From the NCBI GenBank assembly GCA_964016885.1, contig OZ024756.1, positions 36,456,001 through 36,520,000 on the forward strand: a stretch of DNA of 64,000 nucleotides. Reading direction: 5' to 3'. The DNA is from Eledone cirrhosa. Taxonomy: Eukaryota. Made by a program: the position numbers and the translations under genes. This document shows, piece by piece, positions 9,312 through 40,721 of this stretch (the stretch's first letter is position 1; the number at the start of each line of letters is the position of its first letter). The notes under the pieces were generated by a model, which saw only the letters and a list, made by a program, of their open reading frames with translations, ran no database searches and was not told the origin of the DNA.

Positions 9312-9697
9312 TTCCGTTTCGACGGCTATTTCTGTAGTCCAGAAATAGCCGTCGAAACGGCTTGAGCTCTGCCGTCGGGGTCATACTTTTTCCTATATAT
9401 ATATATATATATATATATATGTGTGTGTGTATGTATATATATATATATATATATATATATATATATAGGAAAAAGTAAGACCCCGACGGCAGAGCTCAAG
9501 CCGTTTCGACGGCTATTTCTGGACTACAGAAATAGCCGTCGAAACGGAAATAGCTACAGACTACAGAAATAGCTGTCGAAACGGCTTGAGCTCTGCCGTC
9601 GGGGTCATACTTTTTCCTATTTCCCACTCTACTACCCTAAGTATTGAGTACTCTGGTGCCTTATGGTCCATCTGGTTCCTTACCACAATTCTTTTGT
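9312..9697. mobile_element. Cluster of three pieces of short PLE-terminal family A in alternating orientation
   Basis: Repeated agccgtc-GAAA-cggc.ttgagctct.gccg-TC-ggggtc (3' half of a hammerhead, GUC site) with an ACTC/GAGT tail; (TA)n spacers. Confidence 0.75.
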
Positions 9698-9840
9698 TAT
9701 ATATATATATGTGTGTGTGTGTGTATATATTATATATATATATATATATATATATATATATACATACACACACACACACATATATATATATATATAAATG
9801 AAAGGTATAGAAAATATTGTAGCAAATATATATATATATA

Positions 9841-10200
9841 TGGTGGCTGCCAACTCGTTTTCGAGTACGGCCACTACTTTATATCCATGTAGGAGAACTC
9901 CTACCGATGCGCTGAACGAGTGTGACATTTTAGTCCAGCTAGCTACTTGAAAACTCTGGTACAAACACTACACCTGTGACAATTATTGACACAGTGCTGG
10001 GCCCATGGTACCATGTGACGACAAGTGCAGAGAGATCTCCAGATATAAAGCAATGCCTGTGCCGTGAAGCTTTTATAGTGAGCAAAGGCACTGCACAAAG
10101 CCAGTCCCACTCTCTTAACCAAGATGATATTTACCAAAAAGAAGAACAAGTCAACATCATTGGATACCATCAGGGTTGCAGGTGTTATATCAGAGTTTTC
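9841..10200 (-). mobile_element. RTE-like LINE 3' fragment
   Basis: CSVCTRVFK*LAGLKCHTRSAHR* (terminal CxxC...H finger) then a 3' tail hairpin ctcg.aaaa.cgag and (TA)n. Confidence 0.6.
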
Positions 10201-10537
10201 CTTCTCCTAGAATATATATATATATATATATATATATATATATATACACACACACACACATATATACATATATATTATTACTTTAGACATTTATAGCAAG
10301 TCAACAGCAGCCAGCGTTTACTGCACAACTGATCATATAGGGTGTGGTAAATAATGCCTCCGGTGAGCTGCTGAATGACGTTCAAAACCCATCAAGGATT
10401 TTATATCAAATTAATGTCTCTACATATTTTGTCGATCTCTTTTCGTTCAGCATCTAGGTTAGGGAACCTAAACAAACAGCAAACGTAAACACAGACATGG
10501 GAAAACACGCATGCATGTTTTCCCATGTCTGTGTTTA

Positions 10538-10773
10538 CTAGATACTATGGGTAGTAGAGTGGGTAATAAGAAAAGAGTCAGGACCCCGACGGCTAAGCTT
10601 CCGGCCGTTTCGACAGCTATTTCTGAACTGCTATTTCAGAAATAGCTGTCGGTACGACCGGAGCTCAGCCGTCGGGGTCCTGACTCTTTTCTTATTACCC
10701 ACTCTACTACCCATAGTATCTAGTACTCTGGTGTGTTATGGTCCACCTGGTTCCTTACCACACTTCCTTCATT
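10538..10773. mobile_element. Family A fold-back copy
   Basis: Inverted arms centred at about 10630, continuing into the full tail and (TA)n; abuts a separate 54-nt hairpin at 10485-10538. Confidence 0.75.
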
Positions 10774-11403
10774 ATATATATATATATATATATATATATA
10801 TATATTCTCCCCATTTTTTCACATATATATATATATATATATATATATATATATATATATATATATATATATATATATATATATAAATGAAAGGTATAGA
10901 AATTGTTGTAGCGAGAAGCTAACAGTATTCCATAACATATATGCGACTATAGCGTCAAGATGGGAAAAATAGTTAACGTAAGATGTAGGAAAAATAATTC
11001 AAACTCATCTCAAAAAAGAATCAGGATATAAATTCATCCACAGAATTTAGTGAAATCCAGGGAAAAATCAATAGAGCCTTAACTCATGATAAAATAAAGT
11101 CTAAAATACTTATCCTTCAATTTGGAAAAACATCAAATGCTCTGTATAGTCTTAAAGACTATTTCATGAAAACTTTCAGTGGAGATGGTCACGGTTGGAT
11201 TTCAATATATATATATATATATATATATATATATATATATATATATGTGTGTGTGCGTGTGTGTGTGTGTGTGTGTGAATATATATATATGATTCCAGTT
11301 CCTCAGAGAAATAACAACCCAACCAGGAGCTGGACATATCGGAGTATTGACGGAGTAAAACACTTCAACAACATGTGTACCTGTCTCTACCACACCAATT
11401 CGG

Positions 11404-37200: not shown

Positions 37201-37631
37201 ATACATACAAACATACATACATGTGTGTGTGTGTGTGTGTGTGTGTGTGTGTGTGTGTGTGTGTGTGTGTAAGGGGTATTTGCAGTTTCCGTCTATCATT
37301 GGTTCCCTTGAGGCTATAGTACAAGACACTTGTCCAAGATTCCACGCTGTGGGAACGAACCCGAATCTACGTGGTTATCTAAGAAGCTAATTCCTTAATC
37401 ACACAGCCATGCATACCTCGATGTATTTTAACAAACGTACTCCATTACACGTTTCGTTTTGTTTTCTTATGTAATGAAACCAGACTTATGCCAGATCCAT
37501 GCCAAAGTCAAAAGCTGATATTGTTTTAAATTACAAAACCTCAACCACAAATAATCTCTTAACACACGTTTCTATTTTCAATTTGAGTAATCCACCTTGA
37601 AATGTTGGCGAATTGGCAGAGTCATTATAAT

Positions 37632-38000
37632 TGCTTCTACTTTTGGCACAAGACCAGCAATTATCCCAGTGTATTACTGGTACTTTATTTTATCGACCCC
37701 CTTAAGGATAAAAGACAAAGTTAACCTCGGCGGGATTTGAACGCAGACTGTAAAGGGACGTAACTATGCTAGAAAGCATGGCGTCCAGCGTCCGATACTG
37801 CCAATTCAGAATCATTATAATTGTTTCTACATTTGGCACAAGGCCAGCAATTACCCAGTGTATTACTGGTACTTTATTTTATCGACCCCCGTAAGGATAA
37901 AAGGCAAAGTTAACCTCGGTGGGATTTGAACTCAGACTGTAAAGGGACGTAACTATGCTGAAAAGCATGGCGTCCGACCCTCTACCGATACTGCCCAATC
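37632..38000 (-). mobile_element. Two tandem SINE family 1 copies
   Basis: About 188-bp direct repeat of the family motif. Confidence 0.8.
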
Positions 38001-39570
38001 CAGTTAGAGAGAATGCTTTGCAGTATTCGTTCCAGCTCCCACCGGGGACGATAAATAAAGTACCAGGCTAGTACAGGGGAAGAGAGAGAGCAAGAGAGCG
38101 AGAGCGAGAGAGAGAGAGAGAGGTAGAACACGGTAATATCCGTGGTGGTAGAGCACTCAGTCCATGGGACGAGTTTGGTGGCAGTAGTAACACAAAAGTT
38201 AGTTCACCATACTGAGAACAATTGTTTCACCTTATGCGGATCTTCAATGGTGACCTAACTGTTGTGTTACTACTTCTTTATATATATATATATATATATA
38301 TATATATATATATATGGAGGAGGTTATAGTTCACTTGAAGCATTGTGTAATGAGGTATAAACGTTTGAATATGTGTAATAAAGCCAAAACAATGCAGGTA
38401 TGGACATAGAAAAAACTAGAGCTAAACAATATGTTAAATGTCCTTAATTTAAGGACATTTAAATAAATTCAAGGTAAAGGACGAATTCTCAACAATATCT
38501 TTTACTATTGCATTCTTTTTTCTATGTCCATACCTGCATTGTTTTGGCTTTATTACAATATTCAAACGTTTATATATATATATATATATATATATATATA
38601 TATATGTGTGTGTGTGTGTGTGTGTGTGTGTGTGTGTGTGTGTGTGTGTGTGTGTGTGTGTGTGTGTGTGTGTTTGTCTATTTATCTTTTTTAATATGTT
38701 AATTAATATAAATAAATATATATATATATTTCTTTATTTCTATATCCTGCCAGGAAATTAATTGCATTCTATCAATGGTGGATGTACACAGAAGTTACTC
38801 CAAGTCACCGTTAATGCTGATACGGTGGGCTCAGGGAGAAAGGTAAGCTTACCATTTGTATCATTGATACTATAATATATATATATATATAAATATAAAT
38901 TCAGCGAGAATCGTATTTCGGCTGGTAGAAAAAGCGAAACGAAACGCAAAATCGTAGAAATGGTGGCAAGCGCTCCAATAGTTAAGAAAACTAGAGCTAA
39001 ACAATATGTTAAAACACCATACAAACTGAAACAGTGGTCAAGAAGGCATTAACCACCTAAGCCAAAAAAACAAATCAAGCTAAACAGGTCAAACAAAATA
39101 AATGATAAAAACAGACCTGGACCCAAATGGAATTGAAGGTAAAATCCAAATGCAGGGTTTCTATGACACCTAAATCTGTCTGCTTAAAACTATAAGCTTT
39201 CATCATAAAGATTGAACAAGGAATATCACGTTATCAACAGGTATTTTGCTCTGTAACCAACTTTGTGAGTGACGCAGAACTTTGTAAAAGCACATGTGTA
39301 ACTCACAAGCACATGTGTAACTCATAATATAGAGAACGAAGAATCAGTGATGCATCGGAACACTATTTATTAACGTTTTACAATTATTTCAGCTCGAGGT
39401 GCGATATATTTGTGGATCGAAACAATTGTAATACGTTAATAACTTGTGTTCCGATGCATCACTGATTCTTTGTTTTCCATATTAATTCAAAATATTAACA
39501 AAATAGATATTCTATTTTGTTAATATTTTGTCGTTCTATAATATGTCAGGGTATGTCATGCATTATCCTA

Positions 39571-39625
39571 TTTTATCTGATGAGGACGTACTGTTAAACT
39601 TAACTCAGTACCTCTGAAATAAAAT
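39571..39625 (+). ncRNA. Hammerhead core with the cleavage site deleted (same family as 41828)
   Basis: CTGATGA-ggacgtactg...cagtacctct-GAAA followed directly by taaaa. Confidence 0.6.
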
Positions 39626-40721
39626 ATTATTGATCACAAGAATATCTATTTTGCTAATATTTTGAATTAATATTATATATATATATATATATATATAGTG
39701 TAGGTAGTACGGTGAAATACTGGTGTTGGTACCAAATAAAGCACTCTATGCACAGGTAGAGTGTATATAATAGAAAAAAACGAGGAAATTTCGTTTTCAT
39801 ATCAGAAATATTTATTGTGTATCGACCTGTTACGCGCGTCCATAACTCCTATGGGTCACCTTGAGCCAATCCTTTATGAAACGCGCGTATCAGGTCGATA
39901 AGCAATAAATATGTTTTCCTTATGTAAACGAAACTTCCTCGCTTTTTCTATTATATCTATATATATATAATATATAATACATATATATATCTACTTATAT
40001 ATATATATATATATAATATATAAAATATATATATGTACCTATATATATATATATATATATATAATATATAAAATATATATATGTACCTATATATATATAT
40101 ATATATATATAATATATAAAATATATATATGTACCTATATATATATATATATATATATATATATAATATATATATATATATATATATATTTACCTATATA
40201 TGTATATATATATATTTACCTATATATGTACATATATATAAATATATATATATATATATTTACCTATATATATATATATATATATTTACCTATATATATA
40301 TATATATGTTTCATTGCGTGATCGCCATCTTGAAATCGCTATCCTCAGTTATCAAACGTGAAAAATGTAACTCCTCCAGGGATTACTGATTATGTAACTA
40401 TCAAAGGACAATTCTACGATCGATCTACTGAAGTAAACATCTAGTTGAATCAACCACCAATGTATGCTGAAACAGTCCTCGTTATAGGTTATTCTAGCCC
40501 TGAACTAGAGAAACCGAAAACAATATCTCGTATACCTCTCTCTCTCTCTCCCCCTCTCTCTCTCTCTCTCTCTCTCTCTCTCTCTCTCTCTCTCTCTCTC
40601 TCTCTCTCTCTCTCTCTCTCTCTCTCTCTCTCTCTCTATATATATATATATATATATATATATATATATATAAAATAAAGTTAAATAAAAGTCAAATGAT
40701 TAAAATTTAGCTTCGTTTATT

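Follow-up and report, generated by a model that had tools for sequence, protein, structure and literature searches.

Paired bulged hairpins beside the insertion ends of Hydra-clade Penelope-like retrotransposons in Eledone cirrhosa

A 64,000-nucleotide stretch of the Eledone cirrhosa genome (GenBank assembly GCA_964016885.1, contig OZ024756.1, positions 36,456,001 to 36,520,000, forward strand; hereafter the window, numbered from its first letter) holds several families of microsatellite insert that share a short bulged hairpin. Judged by the open reading frames (ORFs) linked to it, this motif belongs to Penelope-like elements (PLEs) of the Hydra clade. In fuller elements it occurs twice, as M1 and M2, in the order hammerhead-M1-M2-ATG, and the ends of elements fall 0-7 nt 5' of either copy. 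We propose that these hairpins, lying between hammerhead and start codon with ends a few bases 5' of each, are probably RNA docking sites that fix where reverse transcriptase (RT) starts; two such sites would also be the likely explanation of the one-sided "tail" of PLE insertions. PLEs are the closest relatives of telomerase RT, and the motif bears on how they recognize their RNA and build inverted insertions tailed on one side; the sole in vitro PLE study located two start sites, not a binding motif, in the text available to us (PMC11167929). The element clade is known, but a paired cis-element that predicts both insertion ends is apparently new to the literature.

The hairpin and the elements that carry it

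A preliminary description of the window had drawn the hairpin, as ACTC...GAGT-RCT, from six inserts, all of which are present at the coordinates and on the strands it gave: family A (9626-9652, +), B (11700-11727, +), C (12074-12095, +), D (31161-31188, −), E (38152-38174, −, with a 1-nt bulge) and F (39740-39762, −). The strict pattern ACTC-N6-30-GAGTRCT matches ten times in the window, at these six and at four extra family-A copies (11586-11612, −; 41355-41381, +; 41536-41562, +; 58874-58900, −), and all ten matches lie 25-70 nt before a microsatellite. Twenty dinucleotide shuffles of the window gave on average 0.55 strict matches (maximum 3) and 0.05 at that distance. A wider sample of the genome, 38 10-kb stretches chosen by position (380 kb, four stretches adjoining the window), contained 22 strict matches, four of them an unrelated tandem repeat, with 16 at 25-70 nt; eight shuffles gave 3.6 and 0.375. 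Positional enrichment over shuffled controls thus holds in both samples, and the shuffle counts rule out a chance origin of the motif.

The partial instances listed earlier fared unequally. The one near 40960 is a complete hairpin with a long apical loop (family G, 40924-40966, +) and the one near 9040 is its 5'-truncated copy (9030-9047), but the one near 49480 lacks GAG; at 47306 the 5' CTC arm is absent from all five close copies examined, and the instance is not confirmed. The segments 47262-47312 (−) of the window and 2553-2598 (−) of locus L045 represent other TA-inserted families with a GAGTACT end about 45 nt before the junction and no nearby 5' CTC arm, which may be degenerate or long-range versions. 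One further window instance, at 49590-49638 (−), belongs to another Hydra family and has the GCTC/GAGC form, as in L050.

An independent set of elements was taken from a metagenome scan by protein alignment only: 78 loci in 60 families at 80% DNA identity, 56 of which were scored (L193, L233 and two families without an N-terminus were left out). The motif has the general form NCTC-hairpin-TH-GAGN'-NCT and is 19-40 nt long; it is mostly GCTC/GAGC-ACT, and ACTC/GAGT is common in the Eledone cirrhosa genome. The outer stem and RCT had been called invariant, but sites outside this genome depart from that form: of 69, 63 have G-C and four T-A as their first outer pair, and the R is A at 58, T at 6, G at 3 and C at 2.

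Covariation was tested with GAG and CTC as anchors and pairing ignored, at sites that offered a single candidate 5' arm (36 of 45 for M1, 33 of 48 for M2). The first inner pair of M1 was formed at 36 of 36 sites (T-A 23, C-G 12, G-T 1), with 35 Watson-Crick pairs against a shuffle mean of 18.7 and none of 5000 shuffles as high; the second was formed at 29 of 34 and the third at 25 of 28. The corresponding counts for M2 were 33 of 33, 19 of 31 and 13 of 15, and the first outer pair was formed at 67 of 69 sites. Because column shuffles ignore kinship, pair-type changes were counted on the ORF tree, which holds no reference sequences from other PLE clades: there were at least 8, 10 and 7 at the three M1 inner pairs and 3 at the outer pair. 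The covariation score of alignment A2 (0.407, against 0.209 shuffled and at most 0.231 slid) understates the pairing because several rows are out of register. The base two before GAG is T at 89 of 92 sites, and the preceding pair is formed at 69 of 69. The near-invariance of CTC:GAG, the bulged T and the trailing CT (CT and GAG served as anchors) suggests a base-specific reading.

In the window the inner stem varies and covaries as described, except for an A·C mismatch in the 39740 copy; other copies have TGC/GCA. Folded alone, the 12074 and 40924 instances have minimum-free-energy structures that differ from the drawn one, and covariance model R2 misses the 1-nt-bulge copy at 38152. We also considered AGYRCT as a dimerization palindrome; it is excluded, since the commonest form, AGCACT, is not self-complementary. 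The earlier proposal is supported in so far as it saw in the motif a cis-element of PLE terminal repeats that is conserved, covaries and is tied to insertion at (TA)n.

In genome copies of family E an ORF ends upstream of the motif, and this end shows CxCX5C, YVG and CxxC..E..N..CxH but lacks CCHH; L120 and its relatives show RWR, DKT and YRDD in addition to these, again without CCHH. The features match the Hydra-clade signature given in section 11 of PMC8557442, which places family E in that clade. The family-E ORFs in L005, L010, L119 and L120 end in a GIY-YIG-type endonuclease (EN) with the CxCX5C linker, CxxC..E..N..CxH and no CCHH, and L120 retains the N-terminal RWK-type motif, the DKT motif and the RT core. 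R37, W38 and D121-K122-T123 are conserved at 85-99% in ORF alignment A1, and the predicted fold of a relative (pLDDT 89.6) has telomerase RTs (TERTs) as its best structural matches.

Links to an ORF start or body were found for four of the six quoted families: A, which joins a Hydra ORF and M2 in L151; B, where in one genome copy (L362, the single match of a continuation search) the sequence goes on through M2 to an ATG and a short N-terminus of Hydra type; D, whose locus L313 has M2 six bases beyond the long end and then a Hydra ORF (HMM match 1-416, E 2e-126); and E, with the near-full-length Hydra elements L120, L127 and L134. Since the ORFs linked to A, D and E are 38-40% identical, the families do not collapse into one recent family, and a single recent source is excluded; ORF motifs likewise exclude a Naiad or Neptune origin for these three. 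The assignment to PLE terminal repeats stands, and the class can be narrowed to the Hydra clade. At Neptune-type loci (CX2-5CxxC, CCHH) the motif pattern was found downstream of the endonuclease in none of the 30 top PF01541 loci, and covariance-model matches there, the two weakest left out, are separate TA-run inserts or the L050 Hydra element. The abundant Neptune-type elements in L021-L050 also end in TA or CA runs, without this motif. No relative was found in viral contigs.

The window families show insertion into (TA)n with an inverted arm and a one-sided tail. A candidate hammerhead core is visible in window families B, C, E and F and in 28 outside families, and families C and F have inverted arms as well. 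None of the family-A copies examined has an intact core; family-A arms (for example 9486-9570) fold back just 5' of GAAAC and so retain half of a hammerhead-like core.

Two hairpins and the positions of element ends

Copies that extend beyond the long end carry M2 before the ATG. Among 43 outside families with a leader of at least 150 nt, 36 have both hairpins, three M2 only, two M1 only and two neither, and two or more anchors occur in 2 of 201 ORF-interior control windows. M1 and M2 are 53-82 nt apart (median 62; 41 families), and M2 sits at a conserved distance, about 20-55 nt, before the ORF start. The distance from the hammerhead GAAAC to GAG is 57-95 nt (28 families), in agreement with the earlier placement of the motif downstream of the hammerhead. 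Inspected by eye, published consensuses from the PMC8557442 supplement show M1 at the end of coral Hydra-2_Amil and sea-cucumber Hydra-2_Ajap, two copies at the start of Hydra-1_Ajap and motif variants in copepod Hydra-1_Crog; Hydra-1_Amil, Hydra-1_Obim and Hydra-1_Ajap do not reach beyond the short end. The leaders of several related outside families (L179, L180, L182, L186, L229) contain a second CTGATGA 3-7 nt after M1.

The outside loci yielded 17 internal ends, and 13 of these, spread over 13 of 14 families, map 0-4 nt 5' of M1 (5) or M2 (8); 12 more alignments stop at contig ends and are excluded. The same two positions recur within families. Of 84 family-A ends, 38 have an offset of −5 relative to M1 and 34 an offset of 0 relative to M2; in family E (n = 66) the offset is −4 for 24 ends by M1 and −2 or −7 for 29 ends by its candidate M2; and the L050 family (n = 17) has 11 ends by M1 and three by M2. 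In families B, C, D and F, too, a short end lies no more than 7 nt from M1. A TA-alternating patch (TATA or ATAT) stands in the 10 nt immediately 5' of M1 in 18 of 27 families, against a shuffle mean of 4.1, and in the adjoining 10 nt in 1 of 27.

Arms joined head to head are nearly always unlike. The 71 family-A pairs comprise 63 of one short and one long arm, one long-long, no short-short and seven unclassed; pairs of one short and one long arm make up 37 of 43 outside loci fetched by the family-A query. In the L050 family (n = 27) 14 pairs are mixed, none long-long or short-short and 13 unclassed; family E has 12 mixed and four unclassed pairs.

The hairpin had been thought to set the junction that follows it after 30-75 nt, mostly about 45 nt. 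Instead, M2 lies just past that junction and M1 just past the other, shorter end; since ends adjoin M1 or M2, the reported gap follows from the M1-M2 spacing. Thus, as far as aligned ends can tell, each junction is marked by a hairpin that lies just past it and was not itself copied. In some leaders an apical insert apparently divides M2, its length being about 100 nt in family E (L120, L134) and 60 nt in L067, and the long end still adjoins the 5' arm of M2.

Further features of the window

The long arm that carries the family-A hairpin at 9626-9652 ends before the TA run at 9698; the inverted arm of the same insertion has its short end at 9468-9485 (−), stopping before M1, and a neighbouring family-A arm has one at 9376-9393 (+). 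Another family-A hairpin, with its first base changed, stands at 14158-14184 (+), and the inverted partner of the 58874-58900 copy ends at 59009. In family C a putative hammerhead core with stem II precedes M1 at 12009-12032 (+); the core of this copy begins with T instead of C, and the inverted short arm ends near 11929-11933; in family F the inverted short arm ends at 39957. Family E has its candidate hammerhead core and stem II at 38224-38247 (−) and the short end of its inverted arm at 38266-38276 (+). A family-E remnant at 7280-7872 (+) consists of a broken Hydra endonuclease end, a 3' untranslated region, a putative hammerhead (7808-7831) and a motif-free short end.

Between 11533 and 11772 a single insert bounded by TA holds a family-A long arm (−) head to head with a family-B long arm (+), the two being separated by about 70 nt of unrelated spacer; this is possibly a two-family chimera. 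An uninterrupted 343-aa stop-to-stop frame at 19603-20634 (+) presumably resembles a Tc1/mariner transposase.

Possible action of the hairpins and comparison with known systems

We infer that protein docks at the hairpins in Hydra elements. The GIY-YIG domain would cut both strands of (TA)n while protein, probably two RT copies, is bound at M1 and at M2. Each 3' end of the cut DNA would anneal to the UA patch that precedes its hairpin, copying would run towards the RNA 5' end, and the two 5'-truncated cDNAs would be joined head to head. The arm started at M2 would carry M1 and the spacer, which form the tail, and the arm started at M1 would carry neither; the start-marking hairpin would stay uncopied, and M1 in genomic inserts would be a passenger of M2-started arms. 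This scheme agrees with the behavior of the Poseidon PLE of Anolis (PAc; Frangieh et al. 2024, PMC11167929). In vitro, PAc cuts both target strands and extends both; its reverse transcription begins at two sites within the RNA, one at either end of the tail, and depends on RNA 3' of these sites.

Several observations weigh against two RNA docking sites. Four of the 17 internal outside ends fall elsewhere, family-C short ends scatter (main site 11 of 19), and end offsets are reliable to a few bases only, since BLAST ends over-run into TA. M2 is the weaker site: TATA or ATAT lies within 10 nt 5' of it in 15 of 40 families, against a shuffle mean of 4.8, and the adjoining 10 nt contain one in 8 of 40; the predicted central pair probability in context exceeds 0.5 at 18 of 40 M2 sites compared with 30 of 37 for M1; and in family E M2 is non-canonical, with a mismatched first pair besides the apparent split of about 100 nt, its long ends being sharp nonetheless. 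Internal mismatches give no clear folding strand (G·U 10, A·C 6). Both arms copy the same upstream RNA, which would need two RNAs or strand displacement. Finally, the continuation search into ORF or M2 gave five uninformative matches for family C and none for F, and no ORF link was found for either.

These mismatch counts leave room for hairpins that act as DNA, folding in single-stranded cDNA or an intermediate and directing the endonuclease to the adjacent TA patch, so that short and long ends are resolved; a TA patch would suit cutting no less than priming. In PMC8557442 the tail is explained by resolution through the EN, and PMC3846280 puts forward self-priming on an antisense template. 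According to PMC11167929, recognition by the D. virilis EN depended on the tail sequence, and PAc cuts AT-rich DNA. We nevertheless consider this unlikely, because covarying stems need a single strand rather than duplex DNA, the sense strand folds lower than its complement at 72 of 92 sites, and in the single PLE assayed in vitro the tail ends are RT start sites on RNA (PMC11167929). Still less probable is that the hairpins define RNA 3' ends, with cleavage or termination just 5' of each and RT priming at two ready-made ends: uncopied hairpins with ends just 5' of them would be accounted for equally well, but the ends lie in variable TA-rich sequence without a conserved core, the motif is as long as 19-40 nt, one short and one long arm per insertion goes unexplained, and PAc starts internally on uncut RNA (PMC11167929). 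A role in translation control or ribonucleoprotein assembly only, with ends coinciding because TA patches are the sole places where a (TA)n primer can pair, would suit the conserved M2-to-ORF distance and the TA patches adjoining the motifs but is very improbable, given that ends adjoin M2 despite a patch in just 15 of 40 families, that other TA-like leader stretches rarely serve as ends, and that the pairing of one short with one long arm is unexplained.

For the preferred reading, that of two RNA docking sites, the ORF alignment offers a candidate reader of the hairpin, a conserved R35-x-R37-W38 helix. We speculate that the invariant U-bulge and GAG:CUC form an arginine-sandwich pocket read by this N-terminal R-x-R-W helix. 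Tentatively, and with rather more doubt than confidence, we extend this to two TAR-like arginine-sandwich hairpins on one RNA that load two telomerase-like RTs, each pairing one (TA)n cut end with the UA patch 5' of its hairpin. If true, programmed twin priming from never-copied docking sites would explain the PLE inverted arm and one-sided tail, and a portable tag of 20-30 nt could set the start of reverse transcription on any RNA. A short covarying motif just beyond each end also offers exact mutants for tests and a candidate RNA partner of the TERT-like N-terminal domain, and it provides a tag for annotating the numerous ORF-less Hydra fragments; a first look gave 389-2355 candidate fragments per family query.

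No curated Rfam family matched above gathering score: all window matches listed (150 of 335) were below it, mostly microRNA models on repeats, as were all 21 matches at seven Hydra loci. A description of the motif was not found in the literature searched, which excluded Repbase, Dfam and subscription papers and included parts of PMC8557442, PMC11167929, PMC4209133, PMC3846280, PMC7229834 and bioRxiv 10.64898/2026.07.22.740005.

The elements themselves agree with the Hydra clade of PLEs with a C-terminal EN (Craig et al. 2021, PMC8557442), which has the same domain motifs, a single ORF in less than 3 kb, and the same (TA)n targeting, inverted 5'-truncated arm and one-sided tail; to the canonical hammerhead of that clade correspond the candidate cores of families B, C, E and F. 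Neither section 11 nor the other passages and supplement portions consulted describe a hairpin in leader or tail; that paper gives PLE tails as 30-40 bp, produced by EN resolution, whereas here the tail is the M1-M2 distance of 53-82 nt. PAc likewise has two internal RT starts bounding the tail, where a PAc dimer is predicted, but it belongs to another clade and initiates within the ORF, at an AC-rich stem-loop, whereas the Hydra hairpins are in the untranslated leader, each 3' of its proposed start. An RNA-binding motif of PAc is not identified in the main text consulted; the supplementary figures may show a related structure (PMC11167929).

The arginine-sandwich motif of HIV TAR and 7SK SL1 (Pham et al. 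2018, PMC6189040) likewise has a bulged U after a paired base and G-A-G paired with C-U-C; in TAR, U23 forms a triple with A27-U38 and G26 and G28 bind arginines, and the single-U version of 7SK (C62-U63, A65-U44) resembles the 1-nt bulge of family E. The Hydra motif fits the sandwich sequence rule, with a bulged pyrimidine after a paired base and a U-A pair one or two steps on, but the topology is permuted, GAG:CUC being the basal helix here and apical in TAR, and no homology is implied.

Structured RNAs that recruit an RT and fix its start include the telomerase RNA elements bound by TERT, the 3' stem-loops of LINEs, SINEs and R2, and hepadnavirus epsilon. Hydra elements differ from all of these in having two copies, each of which would lie 3' of an internal start and stay uncopied in the event that it marks, and they approach telomerase in that the best structural matches of the predicted Hydra protein are TERTs.

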